Notes: a model not told the origin generated them from the sequence alone. 64,000 nt of DNA from Trichormus sp. ATA11-4-KO1 (GCA_019358915.1 JAHHIM010000005.1:32001-96000); one strand, 5' to 3'. Shown: positions 53,142-64,000, counted from the first letter of the stretch. Numbers and translations: made by a program.

Positions 53142-53537
53142 TTATCCGTTGCTTTGTAAATATTCAATCGCCGCCTCTAATTTGGAGGGGTAACTTTCAG
53201 AAAATCTTTCAAACCAAAGTCCTTCTGGCGAGAAGGGATCTAATTTTTCTAACCATTCTTGTGCCTGATGTTTTAAAGCTTCTAGTTTTTTGGCTTGGAT
53301 TTGTACTTGTCTAATTTTTTCTTGTTCTAGTTCTTGCTGTCTTCTCAAATCCTCAGCTTCATCCTGTGCGGCGAAATCAGCTTTAACTTCTGCCAACAGG
53401 TTATCTACTATAGATAAAGATTTTGGTAGCTGTGGAGTCAATGATTTGGCTGTATTTGGTTGTGGTTGTTTTGCTGCGGGTGTTGCTTCATCATATTCAG
53501 CCTTGAGTTGAGCTAGCAGCTTATCAATAGAGTCCAT
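53142..53537 (-). CDS. Coiled-coil hypothetical protein (Slr1339-like)
   Basis: MDSIDKLLAQLKAEY..WLEKLDPFSPEGLWFERFSESYPSKLEAAIEYL; family name is from recall. Confidence 0.75.
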   Translation of the reverse strand: MDSIDKLLAQLKAEYDEATPAAKQPQPNTAKSLTPQLPKSLSIVDNLLAEVKADFAAQDEAEDLRRQQELEQEKIRQVQIQAKKLEALKHQAQEWLEKLDPFSPEGLWFERFSESYPSKLEAAIEYLQSNG

Positions 53538-53564
53538 TATGCTAAATCTTAATAACAGCGATCG

Positions 53565-54170
53565 CTAGTCAGTGATGGCATTCAGCAAGATTTCTGATAG
53601 GCTGTAATCTTCCATATCGTCCATGGTAATGGTGTCACAGATATCAAATTTAGCCCCAGCACTTTGCATTTCGTCATCCAAGACTTTGAGAAAGCGGGTA
53701 GCTTGCTGATCTGTGCCAACTTGAATAAAGGAAATGCCTAATTCTTCATCTCGATCCATCCGGCGAGACGCTTCAATAATTACCTTCATTACTGCTTTGC
53801 GATCGTCTGGTTCACCATCAGTAACAACTAAAATTGTTTCACCATTCGGTTTGGTTTGACCCGCACCTTTACGTTGAAAGTAATCATCTGTTGCGTGTTT
53901 TAACACAGCAGCTAAATCTGTAGTTCCAGCAGGATCATTTTCTTTAAATATTTGTCCTACCTTACTAGCTGTGACATTTTCATAACGTTTGAATCTACCA
54001 GAAAATAAATAAACAGTGATGCCATCAGGATCATATTGTTCGCACTTACTAGCTAAGGCTAAGGTAGATTCTTGTGCTGCTACCCATCTGCTTCTACCAC
54101 CTTTTTGATCTGGGGTGGCCATGCTACCACTTTTGTCGATAATCAAGGTGTAATCTCGATTTTCTAGCAT
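53565..54170 (-). CDS. vWA domain protein (copy 2)
   Basis: MIDAS DKSGSM, GTTDL, VTDGEP. Confidence 0.93.
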   Translation of the reverse strand: MLENRDYTLIIDKSGSMATPDQKGGRSRWVAAQESTLALASKCEQYDPDGITVYLFSGRFKRYENVTASKVGQIFKENDPAGTTDLAAVLKHATDDYFQRKGAGQTKPNGETILVVTDGEPDDRKAVMKVIIEASRRMDRDEELGISFIQVGTDQQATRFLKVLDDEMQSAGAKFDICDTITMDDMEDYSLSEILLNAITD

Positions 54171-54226
54171 TTTCCAGGCTCCAGTTATTTAGTTAATAGC
54201 CAATATTGAATAGATTCTGGACTGAT

Positions 54227-54832
54227 TCAATCAGTAATTGCATTCATCAATACATCTGCCAGACTCATATCTTCTAAGTCATCTAAGGTGACGGTATCAC
54301 AAATATCGAATTTAGCACCAACACCTTGCAACTGCTCATCTAAAGCTTTGAGAAACTTAGTAGCCTGGGGATCTGACCCGACTTGAATTAAGGAAATTCC
54401 CAATTCTTCATCCCGTTCCATCTGGCGAGTAGCTTGAATAACTACCTCAAATACTGCTCTGCGATCGTCTGGTTCACCATCAGTAATCACTAAAATTGTC
54501 TCGCCATTGGTTTTAGTTTTACCTGCGGCTTTGCGTTGAAAGTAATTATTAAGTGCATCTTGAAGTACACCTGCTAAGTTTGTTGTGCCAGCAGGGTCAT
54601 TTTCTAAAAAAATTTGCGCGACTTTGGCGGAGGTAACATCGTCATAGCGTTTAAATCTGCCAGAAAATACATAAACAGTAATACCATCTGGGTCAAACTG
54701 TTCGCATTTTCTGGCTAAAGCAAGAGTAGACTCTTGGGCTATTTCCCATCGACTTCTACCACCCACTTGGTCAGGGGTAGACATACTACCACTTTTGTCA
54801 ATGATTAATGTGTAGTCGCGATCGCTCATCAT
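54227..54832 (-). CDS. vWA domain protein (copy 1)
   Basis: MIDAS DKSGSM, GTTNL, ITDGEP; close paralogue of its neighbour. Confidence 0.93.
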   Translation of the reverse strand: MMSDRDYTLIIDKSGSMSTPDQVGGRSRWEIAQESTLALARKCEQFDPDGITVYVFSGRFKRYDDVTSAKVAQIFLENDPAGTTNLAGVLQDALNNYFQRKAAGKTKTNGETILVITDGEPDDRRAVFEVVIQATRQMERDEELGISLIQVGSDPQATKFLKALDEQLQGVGAKFDICDTVTLDDLEDMSLADVLMNAITD

Positions 54833-55371: not shown

Positions 55372-55581
55372 TCATGCTGATTTATTACTCTTTTTACTTG
55401 TGGGTGAGGATGAGCTTTTCTGGGAATTTGGCAGTTCTATCTCATTTTTCGCTAACCAATCTTCAATCAATTCTGCTGAAACGTCAGACATATTCAGTCC
55501 TTTAAAAAAACAAACTGTTTTAAACCTGTCTTTTGTTTCAGGGGGCAGGTAAACCCGAATCGAAGCTTCTCCTTGTGCCAC
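55372..55581 (-). CDS. Ribbon-helix-helix (ParG/CopG-like) DNA-binding protein
   Basis: SIRVYLPPETKDRFKTVCFFKGLNMSDVSAELIEDWL is a beta-alpha-alpha pattern; GGAG lies 6 nt before GTG 55581. Confidence 0.8.
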   Translation of the reverse strand: MAQGEASIRVYLPPETKDRFKTVCFFKGLNMSDVSAELIEDWLAKNEIELPNSQKSSSSPTSKKSNKSA

Positions 55582-55605
55582 ACTATACTCCAACGAATAA
55601 ACTTA

Positions 55606-55684
55606 TTCACTAGTTTATTGGTGTAATGGTTCATCGAGAAAAATTATACATTGGTTGACTAATGCACTAGTGCATTGGTATAGT
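55606..55684 (+). promoter_or_regulatory. Sigma70-type promoter (TTGACT-N18-TATAGT) overlapped by 8-bp tandem repeats
   Basis: -35 at 55655-55660, -10 at 55679-55684; octamers TTCACTAG TTTATTGG TGTAATGG TTCATCGA and TACATTGG TTGACTAA TGCACTAG TGCATTGG. Confidence 0.65.
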
Positions 55685-56070
55685 ATCACCTATGCCCAAA
55701 GAAAGAGTCACAACTCTACCTCAAGAATGACACGCAACAAAGGCAATAGACGCCAGAAAGTGTCAGGACGGGCAGACATATAGAATAAGAGTAAAAGCGG
55801 TCAATTTTGCCTAAAATTGGCTTAATTAAGCATGAAATAAGACAAAAATAGATGATGATTTGCCAAAAGATTAGATGGAAAAAAATAAATAAAAGTTTCT
55901 AGTGAGTTACTCTAGCCTTTCAACTCTTTGAGAGTTAGAGCCACTTAACTACAAGCCAAACAAGAAACCACATTTTGCACCAGCTTCAGAAACTCAGTTT
56001 TTCCGACCTAATCGTTCAGTATAAAAAAACCCTTTAAATTCAGTCATTTAGGATATTTAGGTACTTAGGG

Positions 56071-57138
56071 ATGCTCAAAAACTTCTGGTATGCTTGTGAA
56101 TTTAGCTCAGCTGTTACCAACCAGCCCAAGCGAATTGTGATGTTAAATCAGAAATTTGTCCTCTATCGTAATTCTCAAGGGCAAGTAGTAGCACTGAAAG
56201 ACCAATGTTCCCATCGTGGTGCAGCATTATCTATGGGTTGGATAGAAGACAATTGTATCCGTTGCCCCTATCATGGATGGAAATTTCAAGCTGATGGGAA
56301 ATGCCTGGAAATCCCTTCCAATGAAATTGACATGCCCATCCCTAAAAGAGCTAATATCAACAGTTACCCAGTACAGGAAAAATATGGTTTTATCTGGCTA
56401 TTTTATGGAGAATTACCGACACAAAAGTGTCCACCAATTCCTCCCTTGCCAGAATATGAAGACCCCAACATGCATCCTATTTATGTAGAATACGAGATGA
56501 AATCTCACTACACTCGTGTCATCGAAAATGCTCTTGATCCGGCTCATCTTTATGCAGTCCATGCTAATTCCTTCGGAGCAGGATTTGCACAAGATCCAAG
56601 AGTTGAAGACTATGTAGTTGAAAATGAAGATTGGGGTATAAGTACTAAAATCATCTACAAGAATTACACTAAACCTAAAAATGGCATATTTAAATCATTT
56701 TTTCGCCCAAAAAAGACACAGTTAAATGCCAAAATTTGCTTTTACCCTCCTAACATAACTAAATTTGAAAGTGACTTTGGTCGTGGCAAAATTATTAATT
56801 ATGCCATCCACATTCCTGTTGATGATCATACGACCATTAGTAAGCGCATCCAATTACGTAATTTCTTCACCTATTCTTGGGCAGATAACTTATTTGTGAA
56901 GTTTCACCATAAAGTAGGTTTAGAAGATAAAGTAGTAACTGAGTCTCAATATCCCAAGTTGATACCTGACACTTTATCAACGGAAGTTCATGTTCCTGCT
57001 GATGCTTTAACTCTGGCTTATCGACAGCTGCGTCAAAAATATTTAGCTATGGGCTGGGGTTTGCAATCTCATAAAAATAAATCAGACAATTGTCACCAAA
57101 ATCAAGCACGACCTATTTACACCTCATTGATGAACTAA
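56071..57138 (+). CDS. Rieske non-heme iron oxygenase alpha subunit (VanA/CAO-like), copy 1
   Basis: CSH-X16-CPYH Rieske motif; ENALDPAHLYAVH mononuclear Fe site; distal ED. Confidence 0.95.
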   Translation: MLKNFWYACEFSSAVTNQPKRIVMLNQKFVLYRNSQGQVVALKDQCSHRGAALSMGWIEDNCIRCPYHGWKFQADGKCLEIPSNEIDMPIPKRANINSYPVQEKYGFIWLFYGELPTQKCPPIPPLPEYEDPNMHPIYVEYEMKSHYTRVIENALDPAHLYAVHANSFGAGFAQDPRVEDYVVENEDWGISTKIIYKNYTKPKNGIFKSFFRPKKTQLNAKICFYPPNITKFESDFGRGKIINYAIHIPVDDHTTISKRIQLRNFFTYSWADNLFVKFHHKVGLEDKVVTESQYPKLIPDTLSTEVHVPADALTLAYRQLRQKYLAMGWGLQSHKNKSDNCHQNQARPIYTSLMN

Positions 57139-57273
57139 ATTTATAGCTTCTACAGGGTCGTTTTGACGGAAATAATTCCTGCTTCACCATCTATTGTGTT
57201 GATGGAAAGCTTTTGAGTGCAAGTTGGTATGAAATCGCCAAGACAACATATCTAAAAAGAATCGGAGACAAAT

Positions 57274-58341
57274 ATGTTGAAAAACTTTTGGTATGCTTGT
57301 GAATTTAGCTCGGCTATTACCAATAAGCCTAAGCAAGTTGTCATGTTTAATCAGAGATTTGTCCTGTATCGCGACTCTCATGGAAAAATCATCGCGTTGC
57401 AGGATCAGTGTCCCCATCGTGGTGCTGCTTTTTCTCTTGGTTGGATTGAAAAAGATTGTATTCGTTGTCCCTATCATGGATGGAAATTTCAAGCTGACGG
57501 GAAATGTGTAGAAATTCCTTCTAATGCACATGGAACTCCTATCCCCAAAAAATCTCGTGTAGATAGCTACCCAGTCAAAGAAAAGTATGGTTTCGTCTGG
57601 CTATTTTATGGGGACTTACCAGAAGCAGAACGTCCTCCCTTGCCAACTTTTCCCGAATACATGGTCGAGACCATGCGTCCTGTTTACGATGATGGGATAG
57701 ACCATGCTAACTATGCTCGTCTCATGGAAGCTAATCTTGATTTTACTCATGTCATAGCAGTCCATAGAAAATCTTTTGGTCAAAGAATCCCTATCAATAA
57801 AACTATCAATTATCAAGTTGATAAATACGATTGGGGTGCAGTTGCCAAAGTTAATTATGAGTCCTTAGGTAATTCCAAAAGTTTCTTAAACTTTTTACTT
57901 GGTGGACGCCCCGAATTAAAGACAAAATTGACCTTGTATCTGCCCAATGTTACCCTCGCAGAAATTAATGTAGGTAGAGGTGGCAGATTTGATATTAAGT
58001 TTGGAATTTTAGTTGCCCACTTGCCCATTGATGAAAATACCACTCGTGTAAAACGCGTTTTGTATCGCAATATTTTACCCGTACCTTGGTTAGATGGTTT
58101 TTTTAGGAAAATTGACCACAAACTTGCTCAAGAAGACACCGTAGTAGTAGCAACTTTAGATTCTCAACCAATGCCAAAAATATCAGATGAACTTCATGTT
58201 GCTGCTGATGCTTTGGATATTACTTTTCGTAAGTTTCTGCAAAAATCTCAGGCTTCATTTTCTGAGTCGAACCTGGATAACCAAAACCACCTTGTTCATG
58301 AATCTTCAAAACTAGTTCATGTGATAGGTGACAGGGGATAG
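57274..58341 (+). CDS. Rieske non-heme iron oxygenase alpha subunit, copy 2
   Basis: CPH-X16-CPYH; EANLDFTHVIAVH; distal ED. Confidence 0.95.
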   Translation: MLKNFWYACEFSSAITNKPKQVVMFNQRFVLYRDSHGKIIALQDQCPHRGAAFSLGWIEKDCIRCPYHGWKFQADGKCVEIPSNAHGTPIPKKSRVDSYPVKEKYGFVWLFYGDLPEAERPPLPTFPEYMVETMRPVYDDGIDHANYARLMEANLDFTHVIAVHRKSFGQRIPINKTINYQVDKYDWGAVAKVNYESLGNSKSFLNFLLGGRPELKTKLTLYLPNVTLAEINVGRGGRFDIKFGILVAHLPIDENTTRVKRVLYRNILPVPWLDGFFRKIDHKLAQEDTVVVATLDSQPMPKISDELHVAADALDITFRKFLQKSQASFSESNLDNQNHLVHESSKLVHVIGDRG

Positions 58342-58427
58342 GGAAAGAGATTTTCCTCTGATTGCGGAATTATTGGTAAAGCAACAGACATACATAGACG
58401 TACTTCATCAATAGTGGGGAGATAAAT

Positions 58428-59432
58428 ATGACTGATGTCCTAGAAAGAACAGTGACACAACAACCAACAATGCGTGGGGTAATAGACAAGATTTTCAGAC
58501 AGATGTTTGAAAATACTTGCCAAGCACTGGTAGCTATGGATGGTAAAGAGCTTCGTGAACAGTCCTGGAATCGAGATCAAAAGGGCATCTGGACAGTTGG
58601 TAAAAGTAGTGAAGATGCTATCTATATTGATCGTGCGTTGCACAATGGCAATGTCTTTGAAAAGATGGGAGCCAACTATGTAGCGATAGAGGGTGAGTTA
58701 CCTCCGGGAATGTCTTTTCAGCAATCAGGTGCGCTGGCTACAGGTGCAGCAGATCAAATGATTACGACTAGAGGTAATCGCTTCTTCGCCACAGGTTCTA
58801 GCTTTGTGATTCATCCCCACAACCCGATGGCACCGACGGCGCATGTCAACTACCGTTATTTTCAAATTAGTAACGGCAATCAACCTGTTTATTGGTGGCT
58901 TGGCGGCGGCGCAGACCTGACACCGGCATACCTATTTGAGGAAGATGCAGTGCATTTTCATCAGGTGCATAAAGAGGTTTGTGACAAGTACGATCCTGCT
59001 TATTACCCACGTTTTAAAAAGTGGTGTGACGAGTACTTCCACATCCCACATCGAGCTGAAAGCCGGGGTATAGGGGGAATTTTCTTCGACCATCTCAATA
59101 ACGGCAATCCTCAAAAACTGCTGTCATTTGTGACAAATTGTGCTGATGCTTTTATTCCTGCCTATCTGCCGATTGTCGAAAGACGTAAAGATATGTCCTT
59201 TACAGAAGCAAATAAGAATTGGCAACATCTGGTGCGGGGGCGCTATGTGGAATTTATCTTGTCCTGCGATCGCGGCATCCGTTTTGGTTTAGCCAGTGGT
59301 ATGGTGAAGCAGCAAAGTGTGTTTAATTGTATGCCTCCTGCTGCTAGCTGGGAATATGACGATCAACCTGTCCCTGGTAGCAAAGAAGCGATGCTCAAAG
59401 AAGTTTTGCAAAATCCTCGAGATTGGCTATAA
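58428..59432 (+). CDS. hemF: Divergent oxygen-dependent coproporphyrinogen III oxidase homologue (HemF-like)
   Basis: GNVFEK, HPHNPMAPTAHVNYRYF, WWLGGGADLTP, FKKWCDEYF, RGIGGIFFD, RGRYVEF. Confidence 0.9.
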   Translation: MTDVLERTVTQQPTMRGVIDKIFRQMFENTCQALVAMDGKELREQSWNRDQKGIWTVGKSSEDAIYIDRALHNGNVFEKMGANYVAIEGELPPGMSFQQSGALATGAADQMITTRGNRFFATGSSFVIHPHNPMAPTAHVNYRYFQISNGNQPVYWWLGGGADLTPAYLFEEDAVHFHQVHKEVCDKYDPAYYPRFKKWCDEYFHIPHRAESRGIGGIFFDHLNNGNPQKLLSFVTNCADAFIPAYLPIVERRKDMSFTEANKNWQHLVRGRYVEFILSCDRGIRFGLASGMVKQQSVFNCMPPAASWEYDDQPVPGSKEAMLKEVLQNPRDWL

Positions 59433-59802
59433 ATTTGCCGAGCCTGATCATTTGAATTAAGACAATTGAACATAGCAAATAAGATAGTCATACTTGAGAT
59501 GAGAAAAACAAAATCGCTGAACACAAGGCAATCTAAAGCCAAAAGTACGTTTCAACAGCCACTACCAATAATGGCAAATAGTTTTACTTCTTACAAAACA
59601 AGAAGGTACAGACACACTACAAGTGAACTGGAAATAGATATTGCCTTATCTTGTCTTAATGCTTGTAAGTATGTGCTGATTTGGATAATTGGCCTTTGCT
59701 TGTATTCGAGCATGTAAATACTACTCCTCTTTTGTTTCAAGAATACTTATTTCAAGTAACCACAAATACACAAAGGAAAATTAGGTGTAGGAAAAGATAA
59801 CA

Positions 59803-60429
59803 ATGAGCATGGAAACTGAACTGGTTACAGGCAATCTTCGCATGGAAGATATCATCAATCTAGATGAATCAAAAGCCATGAATTTGTTTAGGAAGAGATT
59901 TCAAAGATACAAAAAGCTGGCAGAGGAAATAGGAGATGCAGCCGCTTTTGAAAAGATGATGGAAAAATATCCTGAACAACAAAAGGCGTTGATGGGTACT
60001 TTCATTGATCACAATACTCTAGCGCAAGGTTTCCAGGAAGCTGCTCCTTTGTTAGGATTGATGGGTTTTGTCATGGATATAGTAGATGTCTCGCAAAACG
60101 GGACAGATGCAGCATTAGAAATTCAAAGGGTTTGCCCAGTTTTATCTATCGCTAAAGAATACGGTTTTGATCAGCCGTGTCGTGTTTTTTGTGAGATGGA
60201 ACAAGAAGCGACTAGAAGAGCTTTTCCTGGGATAAAAGCTGCGATTTTGAGTAAACAAGCAGAAGGAGACTGTGTTTGTGTATTTAAGTATGAAAGATTG
60301 ACTAATCAGTCGTTAATCTCAAATACACAAACATCAAGTTTAATACATGGTTTTTTGACTTTAATTGGACTAATTCCCAACTTGCTTAAGATTGGTGTCA
60401 AGATGGTCAAATTGCGGTTATTTAATTAA
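59803..60429 (+). CDS. L-2-amino-thiazoline-4-carboxylate hydrolase-family protein (TolI-like)
   Basis: CP..(X)..CRVFCEME...GDCVCVF cysteine pattern; located directly after hemF. Confidence 0.7.
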   Translation: MSMETELVTGNLRMEDIINLDESKAMNLFRKRFQRYKKLAEEIGDAAAFEKMMEKYPEQQKALMGTFIDHNTLAQGFQEAAPLLGLMGFVMDIVDVSQNGTDAALEIQRVCPVLSIAKEYGFDQPCRVFCEMEQEATRRAFPGIKAAILSKQAEGDCVCVFKYERLTNQSLISNTQTSSLIHGFLTLIGLIPNLLKIGVKMVKLRLFN

Positions 60430-60589
60430 TTGCAATTAGCAATTTTGGCAAGTATTTAGTTTGTAGCCGTTGCCAAAATAATTCACTAATAAACATAAGC
60501 AACGGCTTGATAAATCATTTTCAAAAACATTTATTTCTCATCTCTCCGTGTACTCTGTGTCTCTGTGGTTTTATTAAAACTTTAAACTT

Positions 60590-62005
60590 ATGAACAGCAT
60601 TATTTCAGATTTAAAACAAATTATTGCAGGTGAAGTTAGTAACTTAGAAGCAGAATTAGCAGCAGTTTCTCAAGATTTTGGTGGCATTATTCAAAAACGA
60701 CCTCAAATTGTAGTTCGTCCGCAAAATTCTACTGATGTTGCTCAAGTAATTCAGTATGCTGCTAAACAAGGATTAACTGTTTCGTCACGAGCTGCGGGAC
60801 ATTCACTAGGTGGTCAATCTTTGAATCAAGATGGAATTCTTTTAGATATGCGGAATCTCAATCAAATTCACGAATTCCGTCCCGATGAACTTTGGTTTAA
60901 AGCTGATCCTGGTGTGACGTGGAAGCAGGTAGTTGATATTTCTATACCTCATGGTGTAATTCCGCCTGTACTCACAAATAACTTTGAGGTTACTTTGGGA
61001 GGAACTCTATCTGCGGCTGGTTTAGGCTTGAGTTCTTTTCGTTATGGTTCTCAAGCTGATAATTGTTTGGGTTTGGAAGTTGTTACTGGTACAGGAGATA
61101 TTGTCTGGTGTACACCAGAAGCAAATAGTGAACTTTTTTATCATGTGCTTTGTGGTTATGGGCAGTTTGGCATTATCACGAAAGTTCAAAATCGCCTGAG
61201 AAAATATCGTTCTTACACTCGCAGTTATTTTCTTTGCTATGACGATTTAGATACTCTTTTAAATGATGAGCGTCGCCTTGTTTCTGAAGGTTGTATTGAT
61301 GGTTTAGTATCTTTGTTCTCTCCTTGCCTACTAGGAATGTCTAGGCTAGAAACGAAGATTAAACCCCTAATTCAGTGGTTTTACAGAATGCAAATTACTT
61401 TAGAAGTGGATTCTGTTAATGATATAAATGAAGAAAAATTGCTTTCTGGTTTAAATTTTTATCGTCACATCCACACCGAAGACCTAACTTTTGATAAATT
61501 CATTCAACCAATGGGGCAAGTATCTCATCCTGTAGGTACTGCTAACACCTGGATAGATATTCTTTTACCAGGAGCAAAGGCAAAAGAATTTATCGATATT
61601 GCGCTTCAGTACATACCTTCCTTTATTGACTTCCGAACTATACCTGTAGGTTCCTTTTGTCTTAATTCTCGCAATCATCAAACGCCCATGTTTCCTTTAC
61701 CAGAAGATGATTTAATTATCGGGTTAGGTATGTATCCAACTATCCCTAAATCTCAGCTTAAACCTGTGCTAGAGCAATTAAATCTACTCACTGATCTGGG
61801 CTTCCAAATGGGTGGCAAAAGATATATGGCTACCTGGGTAGAATTTGACCTACCAAGATGGCGACTGCAATTCGGTGATTACTGGCCTAAAGTCAATGAA
61901 ATGAAAAGGAAATATGACCCTCATGGGATACTCAATCCTGGTTTCTTCAAGTATGAACAGGTTGAACAGGCGAATCTCAAAAGTATTTATGTCCCGTCCC
62001 ATTAA
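60590..62005 (+). CDS. FAD-binding oxidoreductase (VAO/cytokinin dehydrogenase-like)
   Basis: RAAGHSLGGQS (putative covalent-FAD His), TLGGTLS, LEVVTGTG, GQFGIIT, KRKYDPHGILNPG. Confidence 0.92.
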   Translation: MNSIISDLKQIIAGEVSNLEAELAAVSQDFGGIIQKRPQIVVRPQNSTDVAQVIQYAAKQGLTVSSRAAGHSLGGQSLNQDGILLDMRNLNQIHEFRPDELWFKADPGVTWKQVVDISIPHGVIPPVLTNNFEVTLGGTLSAAGLGLSSFRYGSQADNCLGLEVVTGTGDIVWCTPEANSELFYHVLCGYGQFGIITKVQNRLRKYRSYTRSYFLCYDDLDTLLNDERRLVSEGCIDGLVSLFSPCLLGMSRLETKIKPLIQWFYRMQITLEVDSVNDINEEKLLSGLNFYRHIHTEDLTFDKFIQPMGQVSHPVGTANTWIDILLPGAKAKEFIDIALQYIPSFIDFRTIPVGSFCLNSRNHQTPMFPLPEDDLIIGLGMYPTIPKSQLKPVLEQLNLLTDLGFQMGGKRYMATWVEFDLPRWRLQFGDYWPKVNEMKRKYDPHGILNPGFFKYEQVEQANLKSIYVPSH

Positions 62006-62020
62006 TCAGGCGTAAAAACG

Positions 62021-63241
62021 ATGTTGCGAAATTCTGAGGAAATGAAGAAATCATCTCTATTTCCTACTAATTTGCGTTGGTTAGCTGCTGTGGGTATTAC
62101 CTGTATGATGGCGATGGGAGCGGGAGTAGTATATGTCACTCGTCCACCAGCTACTACGAAAAATCCAGTCGTCACTGCACAAGTGAGCCAACCAGTTATT
62201 CCCAAGGTGAATGCATTAGGAAGATTAGAGCCAGCAGGTGAAGTAATTAAGATTTCGGCTCCAACTAATCCCAGTGCTGGTAGTGGTAGCCGTGTTACTC
62301 AATTGTTAGTTGAGGAAGGTACGCAGGTACGAGCAGGACAGACGATCGCCATTTTGGATAATCGCGATCGCCTACAAGCTAATTTAAAAGAAGCACAGCA
62401 GCAAGTCCGAGTGGCTCAATCCCGACTGACTCAAGTCAAAGCCGGGGCCAAACAAGGTGAAATAACCGCTAGACAAGCAACTGTGAGCAATCTGCAAGCA
62501 CAGTTAGATGGTGAAATCCAAACCCAACAAGCTACTATTGCTCGCTTAGAAGCAGGGTTACAGAACGCAGAGATAGAATTTCGCCGCTATGAAAGTCTTT
62601 ATCAAGAAGGCGCGATCGCGGCTGCGGATCTCGATGGTCGGAGATTAACTTTAAGAACCGCTCAAGCAGAATTGAATGGTGCTAAAGCCAGCTTACAAAG
62701 AACACAACGCACCATCACAGCCCAAATTCAAGAAGCCAAAGCCACCTTGGAGCAAACAGCAGAAGTGCGTCCTACAGATATAGCCACAGCACAGGCAGAA
62801 GTAGATAGTGCGATCGCCTCAGTTGAGAAAATGCGAGTTGAACTCGACTCAGCATATATTCGCGCCCCAAAAGCAGGTCAAATTCTGCGAATTCAAGCTC
62901 GTCCCGGCGAAACTATCGATGAAGCAGGAATTGTCGAACTTGGTCAAACAGAGCAAATGTATGCTGTAGCTGAAATCTACGAAAGTGATATCGCTAAAAT
63001 TCGCCCTGGTCAAACTGCCAGTATTACTAGTCCTAGCAATGCCTTTGAGGGTAAGTTAAGCGGCACAGTTGATCGTATTGGTTTAAAAGTGGCGAAAAAA
63101 GATGTCTTAGACAGCGACCCCACGGCGGCCACAGATGCCAGGGTAATTGAAGCCAAAATTCGTTTAGATCAAACAGCAAGCCAGCAAGTGGCTAACTTTA
63201 CTAACCTTCAAGTCAATGTCGAAATAGTCATTGGTCAATAG
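62021..63241 (+). CDS. devB: DevB family ABC exporter membrane-fusion protein
   Basis: ALGRLEPAGEVI, MYAVAEIYESDI, DARVIE, TNLQVNV. Confidence 0.92.
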   Translation: MLRNSEEMKKSSLFPTNLRWLAAVGITCMMAMGAGVVYVTRPPATTKNPVVTAQVSQPVIPKVNALGRLEPAGEVIKISAPTNPSAGSGSRVTQLLVEEGTQVRAGQTIAILDNRDRLQANLKEAQQQVRVAQSRLTQVKAGAKQGEITARQATVSNLQAQLDGEIQTQQATIARLEAGLQNAEIEFRRYESLYQEGAIAAADLDGRRLTLRTAQAELNGAKASLQRTQRTITAQIQEAKATLEQTAEVRPTDIATAQAEVDSAIASVEKMRVELDSAYIRAPKAGQILRIQARPGETIDEAGIVELGQTEQMYAVAEIYESDIAKIRPGQTASITSPSNAFEGKLSGTVDRIGLKVAKKDVLDSDPTAATDARVIEAKIRLDQTASQQVANFTNLQVNVEIVIGQ

Positions 63242-63325
63242 TCATTGGTCATTGGGTATTGGTTATTTCCCCCACTCCCCTGCTCCCCTGCTCCCCCACT
63301 CCCCCACTCCCCCATCCCCCATCCT
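63225..63325. repeat. STRR cluster (GTCATTG)n and (CCCC(A/T)(C/G)TC)n
   Basis: Read directly between devB and devC. Confidence 0.8.
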
Positions 63326-63328
63326 CTC

Positions 63329-64000
63329 ATGTTCAAACCCAAAATCCCCTTGGCTTGGCGGCAACTAATGAAACAAAAAGGGCGGTTTCTCGTTGCCCTT
63401 TGTGGAATTACATTTGCCGATTTTCTCATGTTAATGCAGTTGGGCTTTCAGTCGGCTTTATATGATAGTAATACCCGCTTTCATGAACTTTTACAAGCAG
63501 ATTTAGTATTAATGAGCCGCCAAGGGCAAAATCTAGGATTACTCAGTAGTTTTCCTCGTCGGCGGTTGTTTCAAGCTGCTAATCTATCTGAGGTTGAGTC
63601 AGTTAATCCTTTGTATATTCGTATAGGAGTTTGGAAAAGTCCCCAAACTAAGTTAGATGAATCAATTTTAGTAATCGGCTTTAATCCAGAAAAACCTGCG
63701 TTTAATTTACCAGCAGTCAATCAAAAATTAGATCAGATTAAATATCCCAACACACTGTTATTTGACCGTAACGCCAACGGGAAATATGAACAGGCGATCG
63801 CTCAAATATCTGAAGGTAAACCTGTCACGACAGAACTGCAAGGACGTAAAGTTAAAATTGGCGGTTTGTATGAGGTTGGTGCATCTTTTGTAGCTAATGG
63901 CAGTGTAATTACTAGTGACCAGAACTACTTGCGAATTTTTTCGGCACAGCAACCAGGTAACGTCAACCTGGGTTTAATTAATCTTAAATCGGGTAGTGAT
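63329..64000 (+). CDS. devC: DevC family ABC exporter permease, truncated at the right window edge
   Basis: Manual translation MFKPKIPLAWRQLMKQKGRFLVALCGITFADFLMLMQLGFQSALYDSN..SFPRRRL; open to the window end. Confidence 0.92.
   Translation, partial: MFKPKIPLAWRQLMKQKGRFLVALCGITFADFLMLMQLGFQSALYDSNTRFHELLQADLVLMSRQGQNLGLLSSFPRRRLFQAANLSEVESVNPLYIRIGVWKSPQTKLDESILVIGFNPEKPAFNLPAVNQKLDQIKYPNTLLFDRNANGKYEQAIAQISEGKPVTTELQGRKVKIGGLYEVGASFVANGSVITSDQNYLRIFSAQQPGNVNLGLINLKSGSD

Follow-up and report, generated by a model that had tools for sequence, protein, structure and literature searches.

The stretch of DNA analysed in this study (the window) is 64,000 nt of contig C5 of Trichormus sp. ATA11-4-KO1, whose genome of 5.97 Mb is 99.9% complete. 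The end of the window carries a compact gene cassette related to the tol biosynthetic gene clusters (BGCs) for tolyporphins, pigments known from one culture (PMC8401325, PMC10459692), that of strain HT-58-2. Families were assigned by Pfam and NCBIfam profile matches. Two genes for non-haem iron oxygenases come first on the plus strand: Rieske-1 (56071-57138), by identity the orthologue of the first 'hcaE' of the HT-58-2 cluster BGC-2, and Rieske-2 (57274-58341), identified likewise and placed in its own clade; both match the Pfam Rieske and VanA_C families. They are followed by a HemF2-type, non-canonical porphyrinogen oxidative decarboxylase (58428-59432), an unannotated protein of 72 aa with a single hydrophobic helix at its C terminus (59499-59717), an orthologue of TolI, the Fe-S vinyl-cleaving hydrolase (59803-60429), an orthologue of TolJ, a cytokinin-dehydrogenase-like flavoenzyme (60590-62005), a DevB-family membrane fusion protein (62021-63241; TIGR02971 above cut-off) and a DevC ABC permease (63329-64000 and on past the edge; TIGR01185 above cut-off). 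On the minus strand, divergent from this run, lies the gene of a ParG-like ribbon-helix-helix (RHH) regulator (55372-55593). A sequence-only reading of the window had named the same two Rieske oxygenases, HemF, ATC-hydrolase-family protein, flavin oxidase, DevB, DevC and RHH regulator. All of these open reading frames (ORFs) are intact and lie where that reading placed them, and the profile matches bear out the family names; the ATC_hydrolase match is below cut-off, and that case was settled by direct comparison with TolI. The gene list was incomplete, and the conserved 72-aa gene had been overlooked.

The co-oriented genes are spaced by 15-160 bases. The run had been expected to continue past the window edge, and devC does so for 486 bases. 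There the cassette is over, since devC, ending at window-equivalent position 64486, is its last gene. A CHRD/PEP-CTERM gene and then unrelated genes follow; no devA, hem, P450 or TolD-like gene is found among the ORFs listed to ~20 kb beyond the edge. Comparison with eight relatives gives a dN/dS of 0.00-0.31 for every cassette gene, mostly 0.04-0.22 at dS up to ~1, and all cassette genes are thus under purifying selection. One clade of 26 loci shows this gene order in 25 of them, and a contig end truncates the remaining one. Together with the dN/dS values, this indicates that the run of genes is not due to chance.

The window HemF (Coprogen_oxidas, E 7e-111) is 72%, 58% and 63% identical to HemF2 of BGC-2, BGC-1 (the other HT-58-2 cluster) and Oculatella, respectively, and 39% identical to HemF1. 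In a quick IQ-TREE analysis of 82 HemF proteins, it grouped with HtHemF2 and OsHemF2 among 67 HemF2 proteins, apart from 15 HemF1/housekeeping proteins (SH-aLRT 100). At all 41 columns that distinguish the groups it shows the HemF2 state, the window protein being one of the 67 rows that define this state. A second, housekeeping HemF is encoded on contig C1 (39% identity with the window HemF, 78% with HemF1 of BGC-1), and the window gene is therefore not a housekeeping hemF present as the sole copy, which would have told against the sequence-only reading. The TolI protein matches ATC_hydrolase with E 2e-5 and 26 bits, under the cut-off of 28.1. It is 66%, 60% and 62% identical over ~200 residues to TolI of BGC-2, BGC-1 and Oculatella LEGE 06141, and the doubt whether it is related to TolI at all is thereby removed. 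Its homology is full-length, it ends in an amphipathic C-terminal tail like that of the assayed enzyme, and its four cysteines C111, C126, C130 and C159 are invariant in 73 of 73 aligned rows. The HT-58-2 HemF2 converts protoporphyrinogen IX to a tetravinyl compound by decarboxylating the propionates of rings C and D, as shown for the HT-58-2 enzyme only; TolI then removes the four vinyls as acetaldehyde, an activity described for the HT-58-2 and Oculatella orthologues, with the Fe-S cluster and the acetaldehyde-releasing cleavage shown for Oculatella TolI (PMC10459692, PMC10548856). A search with the TolI sequence against the sequences of solved structures gave no match, and a Foldseek search with the TolI model gave nothing at E 0.001; the model (pLDDT 72) resembles BcsD, Bet3, V4R and haem-binding H-NOX folds at Z 6-10, a middling likeness from which no function follows.

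The ORF of 72 codons between hemF2 and tolI, which ends in a hydrophobic helix, has a counterpart upstream of tolI in 68 of the 70 tol-type loci (66 of the 68 were longest-ORF picks made by eye, to which L062 and L066 were added); a stricter pattern finds it in 58 of the 70. It was not found in BGC-1 or L110, and L081 is cut. For its conserved end (the last 33 codons), comparison with 12 relatives gives a dN/dS of 0.12. The protein matches nothing in Pfam or the Atlas and has 38 representatives in 1.84 billion proteins; the 2013 annotation of Nodularia spumigena CCY9414 has a reverse-strand call in its place. The likely role of this small membrane protein is that of an accessory to the HemF2/TolI step. 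Apart from these loci, tail-less TolI-like proteins of 160-186 aa (46-51% identity, with the same cysteines in aligned rows) are encoded without HemF2 in Chlorobiaceae, in a hydrogenase cluster of HT-58-2 and elsewhere (L083, L084, L088:8708-9268 and L089:8390-8935).

Both Rieske paralogues have the ligands of alpha-3, VanA-like Rieske oxygenases, CxH...CxxH for the cluster and DxxH..H..D for the iron site. In Rieske-1, C46, H48, C65 and H68 together with H159, H164 and D286 are invariant in 59 of 59 sequences; in Rieske-2, all metal ligands are invariant in 45 of 45. Rieske-1 is 62% identical to both the BGC-2 and the Oculatella copies, and Rieske-2 72.5% and 66%. The trees show two separate old clades, each extending from Leptolyngbyaceae to Nostocales. 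The nearest solved relatives are the alpha-3 enzymes SxtT/GxtA (E 5e-34) and NdmA, which are distant matches. HcaE identity was rejected because the two proteins score 28 and 26.6 bits with NCBIfam NF042946, whose cut-off is 830. None of the six P450s of the genome falls in the TolG/H clade (SH-aLRT 100), and the Rieske pair is therefore the only set of oxygenases linked to the cassette. Several variants were noted among the relatives. In some compact cassettes (L018:6345-7397; genomes G183, G189 and G179), Rieske-1 is only 67-68% identical to that of the window, and the L018 copy groups with the BGC-2 type, which suggests gene replacement. The bridging Asp156 is replaced by Cys in six Rieske-1 copies (L039, L040, L045, L046, L049 and L058). 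In ~10 genomes (L085, L094-L102, L086 and L126), a unit without TolI consists of two sister Rieske genes on either side of a gene for a membrane protein (212-242 aa) that belongs to no Pfam family; in most cases an RTX-repeat protein gene lies next to it. Sister Rieske genes ~50% identical to the tol pair adjoin an RCC reductase gene (PF06405, E 9e-21) and/or a second gene with the bilin-reductase fold (L087:4212-6834 in genome G045, L126, L130 and L131), a possible bacterial counterpart of the tetrapyrrole-opening pair of pheophorbide a oxygenase (PaO) and RCC reductase (RCCR).

TolJ (FAD_binding_4 and Cytokin-bind) is 75% identical to the BGC-2 protein, 58% to that of BGC-1 and 70% to that of Oculatella, and among proteins of solved structure, cytokinin dehydrogenases come closest (E 2e-42). 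The RxxGH motif, whose histidine is a site of covalent FAD attachment, retains this residue (His71). DevB is 49% identical to DevB of BGC-2. Of 24 complete compact loci, 11 have a devA gene after devC. Six DevA-like genes occur elsewhere in the Trichormus genome, with 67-72% identity to a cassette DevA.

The claim that the cassette has its own divergent RHH regulator agrees with a ParG-type match (Pfam ParG, E 1.4e-4) and with the conservation of the gene, which is 79-100% identical in all 25 compact loci that include the region, with a dN/dS of 0.00-0.22; its actual start may be a GTG at 55581. A predicted sigma-70 promoter (plus strand, 55655-55684) consists of TTGACT, an 18-nt spacer and a TG-extended TATAGT. 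It is the best of 12 sigma-70-like sites in 10.5 kb, with 10 of 12 matches; shuffled sequences give more sites in total, so that the scan by itself is weak evidence. Across the 25 aligned loci, the two hexamer regions are conserved, unlike the far part of the spacer. The spacer is filled by a perfect 16-bp palindrome (55661-55676), a candidate RHH operator that is conserved with some substitutions in the 25 aligned loci and has one other site within two mismatches in the genome. The predicted 5' leader contains a two-stem hairpin (55728-55765, plus strand), for which 92.9% of cells are paired in 25 aligned copies and three of nine pairs show two-sided changes, a weak covariation among related sequences; the hairpin is degenerate in L022 and has no Rfam family, with nothing near threshold. 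The same layout of RHH gene, promoter and hairpin exists on plasmid-like contigs, namely C39 of the Trichormus genome and a contig of genome G014. The regulator module was thus probably recruited from a mobile element. On these contigs (C39:1517-1566 in L111/L113; L123-L125 in G014), the hairpin has a longer stem and heads operons, and the -10 box is preceded by a palindrome with a divergent RHH-like ORF.

A genome scan with a TolI alignment yielded 71 loci, including both HT-58-2 clusters, Oculatella LEGE 06141 and Nostoc FACHB-892; TolI of L056 lies at 2,604,869-2,605,492, exactly the tolI coordinates tabulated in PMC10459692. Gene maps were drawn from ORF calls clustered by BLASTP and labelled from the window, HT-58-2 and N-terminal sequence. 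The order RHH, Rieske, Rieske, HemF2, TolI, TolJ, DevB, DevC was found in 26 loci (the window, L014-L035, L066, L076 and L082) from Nodularia, Anabaenopsis, Umezakia, Chrysosporum, Cyanocohniella, Komarekiella, Halotia, Atlanticothrix, Dendronalium, Amazonocrinis and other genera. Contig ends truncate three of them (L033, L014 and L019), L024 has a split TolJ, and in L028 no DevB was called. Their flanks contain no hemA/B/C/E, P450 or TolD-type gene; several Nodularia-type loci have an unrelated family-2 glycosyltransferase gene ~5 kb on, behind genes on the opposite strand. The 26 loci group together in the HemF2 tree (support 99) and the TolI tree (98), as do 25 rows in the Rieske-2 tree (100) and 24 of 25 compact rows in the Rieske-1 tree, where L018 is the exception. 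Seven further stretches have the same compact order.

Among 389 genomes of this heterocyst-forming family, 73 TolI matches were obtained, which became 71 after removal of the tail-less protein of G080 and a 51-residue fragment in G092; the tail-less Chlorobiaceae loci (L083 and L084) were likewise left out of the locus counts. In 34 of these genomes the TolI match is at 71% identity or above, the compact-type range. Rieske-1 is matched at E 1e-60 in 74 of the 389 genomes, 66 of them among the 71 with TolI, and TolD in six, all among the 71. Thus, most TolI pathways include Rieske oxygenases and no C-glycosyltransferase, although co-occurrence counts among related, non-independent genomes are descriptions rather than tests. 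In the 70 tol-type loci, with flanks of at most 10 kb that can be too short for long clusters, HemF is present in 68, TolJ in 67, Rieske in 62, P450 in 13 and a TolD-type gene in eight. HemF2, TolI, TolJ and Rieske form the core of the family. Among the named loci, 51 have Rieske genes without P450 or TolD in the flank, nine have both oxygenase types, and four have P450 without Rieske (L056, L057, L074 and L075). Of the five TolI genomes without Rieske, three have TolD, and L110 has two P450s. The P450-bearing loci that lack Rieske genes, L110 among them, suggest that the two types can substitute for each other. In an even sample of the phylum, TolI was found in 3 of 45 genomes of the family and in 0 of 355 others; since named Leptolyngbyaceae and Oculatellaceae loci exist, TolI outside the family is rare rather than absent. 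A second architecture is common in Nostoc (L059-L073 and L079, one on a plasmid), with HemF2, TolI, TolJ, HemA, a single Rieske-1, hemE/C/B/F1, a divergent RHH-like gene and a haem-oxygenase-like ORF, and with no P450 or TolD in the flanks.

From these results, a route can be proposed in which confidence falls from step to step. HemF2 and TolI very probably convert protoporphyrinogen IX to tolyporphyrinogen P. The substrate would be drawn off the housekeeping haem/chlorophyll route, because the cassette has no HemF1; HemF2 would turn the last two propionates into vinyls, and TolI would remove all four vinyls as acetaldehyde. If this step takes place, the chance that the Rieske pair and TolJ then oxidise the ring system to a hydroxy-oxo pigment appears slightly better than even. 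Each Rieske paralogue would oxygenate the beta-beta bond of one ring at a methyl/H position, with electrons supplied by host ferredoxin, since no reductase is encoded in the cassette. The two-electron oxidations that remain, conversion of alcohol to ketone and/or aromatisation, would fall to TolJ. As neither TolD nor an acyltransferase is present, the group beside the oxo group would be OH and not a sugar or acetate. Sugar-free tolyporphins carry OH or OAc at this place (two OH in J, one in Q), and TolH in E. coli gives a hydroxy-oxo product (PMC10459692). A pair of Rieske enzymes together with a flavoenzyme would be suited to making one or two hydroxy-oxo rings without TolD, TolC or TolG/H; the formation of an oxo-chlorin or bacteriochlorin by this pair and the export of the product are what we infer. 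The hydrophobic product would be exported by DevBC with a DevA from another locus, and the RHH protein would bind the spacer palindrome and keep the operon nearly off until a signal is received. Taken as a whole, the cassette is a conserved, stripped-down relative of the tol clusters, and there is about an even chance that it leads from protoporphyrinogen IX through a tetramethyl-porphyrinogen to an exported, sugar-free hydroxy-oxo pigment of the tolyporphin Q/J type.

Data from Nodularia bear on whether such a pathway is in use. In N. spumigena CCY9414, genes NSP14530-14600 have the same products in the same order; the match was made by gene order, by product names and through a TolI of N. 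spumigena at 78% identity, rather than by alignment of the tagged genes themselves. In 12 samples, the cassette enzyme genes were at ~1-7e-4, devB at ~1e-3 and housekeeping hemF at 3.6-9.6e-3 (PMC9846622). The cassette is nearly quiet in those conditions, in this one data set.

Several observations weigh against the proposed pigment route. Transcription of the CCY9414 cassette is ~10-40 times below that of housekeeping hemF and does not change significantly under phosphate limitation (PMC9846622). A product is known only from HT-58-2, and three strains with full tol clusters, the Rieske-bearing Oculatella among them, were negative for tolyporphins in three assays (PMC8401325). The available text of the reviews reports no activity for a Rieske pair or TolJ, and co-expression of TolJ with HemF2 is given there with no new product (PMC10459692). 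Nine loci hold a Rieske pair and a P450 together, so the two are not simple substitutes, and tail-less TolI-like proteins (46-51% identity) occur in unrelated contexts. The sister Rieske clade adjoins RCC-reductase and bilin-reductase-fold genes (four loci) as well as genes for aromatic amino-acid catabolism. Orthology of DevBC to the tol exporters is not supported, as the window DevB is no closer to that of BGC-2 than to the other DevB paralogues of its own genome, and devA is missing from 13 of 24 complete compact loci, the window included.

PaO opens the macrocycle in a reaction that is paired with RCCR, and ring opening is the main rival explanation. The entry steps would be the same, and the Rieske pair would then cleave the ring in a PaO-like manner, giving a linear tetrapyrrole or dipyrrole exported as a pigment, as a signal or as a means of disposing of phototoxic porphyrinogen. 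The RCCR-type neighbourhood of the sister clade supports a tetrapyrrole substrate for the wider Rieske family but points to ring opening, and an RCC-reductase homologue is present on contig C12 of the Trichormus genome; moreover, linear products would escape the 676-nm assays that were negative in Oculatella (PMC8401325). This explanation is nevertheless unlikely. The window Rieske proteins have no match to the Pfam PaO domain at E 0.1, and no gene with the RCC-reductase fold was found in any tol-type locus fetched, which lowers the case for membership in the PaO/RCCR system, not the likelihood of similar chemistry. The tree sets the tol Rieske clade apart from the RCCR-linked one; of the four loci linked to RCCR, three come from metagenome contigs, whose independence is uncertain. 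The occurrence of Rieske genes together with TolD/TolC in some clusters is easier to reconcile with the decoration of an intact ring.

Chlorophyllide a oxygenase (CAO) and SxtT-type monooxygenases act on C-H bonds. After the same entry steps, the Rieske pair may accordingly hydroxylate the methyls; the products would be porphyrins with hydroxymethyl, formyl or carboxy groups, and TolJ would act as a porphyrinogen or alcohol oxidase. The nearest solved relatives are mostly C-H monooxygenases, as is the best NCBIfam match, a methylsterol monooxygenase far under cut-off, and methyl oxidation would explain the nine loci that combine Rieske and P450. The likeness is at the level of the fold, however, and the same lists include alpha-3 dioxygenases; none of the 18 known tolyporphins is of this kind, though HT-58-2 has the pair. 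Methyl oxidation is therefore a doubtful alternative. It is similarly improbable that the cassette stops at tolyporphin P or uses a non-tetrapyrrole substrate, with the Rieske pair and exporter serving another compound, or that it is a near-silent remnant: the very low transcription in one data set (PMC9846622), the occurrence of tail-less TolI-like proteins and sister Rieske pairs without HemF2, the loss of devA in a sub-clade and the defects in L024 and L028 fit such a view, but the low dN/dS values, the gene order and promoter fixed in 25 loci and the presence of Rieske in 66 of 71 TolI genomes, kin that are not independent, oppose it.

The TolI route occurs in 71 of the 389 family genomes, in most of them with no TolD. 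Its eight-gene form has a single promoter and a single regulator and is kept in numerous filamentous cyanobacteria, well-studied bloom formers among them. The balance tilts slightly towards a broader statement: about a fifth of these genomes, including bloom-forming Nodularia, Anabaenopsis, Umezakia and Chrysosporum, may carry a cryptic branch that makes a bare tetramethyl-porphyrinogen and passes it to a dedicated Rieske pair for a secreted, hitherto undescribed tetrapyrrole, either a hydroxy-oxo chlorin/bacteriochlorin or a ring-opened compound. In that case the glycosylated tolyporphins would be a rare elaboration of a widespread pathway, and the Rieske enzymes would perform new chemistry on a metal-free macrocycle. 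Should blooms produce such a photoactive, exported tetrapyrrole, their chemistry would include a component that has been overlooked. The cassette is the smallest system for learning the roles of the Rieske pair, TolJ and the unannotated membrane protein; the candidate RHH operator provides a handle for switching on a quiet pathway, and the proposed products provide specific masses to seek in existing Nodularia extracts.

The genes on either side are separate from the cassette. To the left, two tandem vWA/TerF-like genes and a coiled-coil gene (53142-54832) form their own unit, which stands beside the cassette only in the closest relative; the vWA genes were rejected as members because they are present only in the two closest loci. 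To the right, the CHRD-domain PEP-CTERM gene (L001:12674-13252, 672 bases beyond the window), directly after devC and not conserved with the cassette, was rejected since it is not seen in other loci.

Tol clusters beyond HT-58-2 have been reported in seven further strains (Jin et al. 2021, PMC8401325). All clusters in that survey are reported to contain clustered hem genes, tolB, tolD and a P450 (PMC8401325), and the duplicate 'hcaE' of BGC-2, Oculatella and FACHB-892 is noted there with its relevance called unknown (PMC8401325; also PMC10459692). The suggestion that tol-like clusters with ring-hydroxylating oxygenases had already been catalogued was thus right (PMC8401325). Compared with the definition of Jin et al. 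2021, the cassette has TolI and TolJ homologues (58-75% identity) and DevB/DevC at the cluster edge. It does not have clustered hem genes, as hemF2 is the only one and hemA, hemE and hemC are single copies on other contigs, and it has neither a TolD glycosyltransferase nor a TolG/TolH P450. The absence of P450 and glycosyltransferase genes that had been remarked on in the window extends to the end of the cassette, and the whole genome has no TolD match (tblastn with three TolD queries at E 1e-10; none at E 1e-30) and no P450 of the TolG/H clade. The earlier guess of a non-glycosylated product is strengthened by the lack of TolD. By gene content, the cassette is not a tol BGC under this definition, yet it resembles one at the HemF2/TolI step.

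The clusters most like it are BGC-2 of HT-58-2 and those of Oculatella and FACHB-892, which have orthologous HemF2, TolI, TolJ and both 'hcaE' Rieske proteins (62-75% identity), DevB/DevC at the edge and the small ORF between hemF2 and tolI. Unlike them, the window cassette lacks hemA/B/C/E/F1, the TolH P450, TolD and TolC, places its Rieske genes first and belongs to a separate clade in the HemF2, TolI and both Rieske trees; its module of RHH gene, promoter and leader was not found in those loci. BGC-1 of HT-58-2 (tolA-K, hemABCEF1F2) shares the HemF2-TolI-TolJ block in the same order at 58-60% identity, with tolI of 624 bp and tolJ of 1413 bp against 627 and 1416 bp in the window; it differs by the presence of two P450s and sugar genes and by the absence of the small ORF and of the Rieske pair. 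With HemF2 and TolI of Ushimaru et al. 2023, as described in the reviews, the window proteins share the clade, the diagnostic residues, the four invariant cysteines and the amphipathic tail; the assayed enzymes are outside the compact clade, and Rieske is not among the tested genes listed there. The alpha-3 Rieske oxygenases SxtT/GxtA, NdmA and DdmC have the same Rieske and VanA_C architecture and all metal ligands, but match only distantly (best E 5e-34). The literature searched, a coverage that excludes most subscription journals, gave no account of the compact cassette: the passages covered in PMC13299783 contain nothing on bacterial distribution, 12 of the 17 supplementary files of PMC5853447 gave no match, and the search terms are absent from the main text of PMC3610870. 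In sum, compared with the known tol systems, the entry enzymes of the cassette are known, its finishing chemistry would be new, and its spread is much wider than published.

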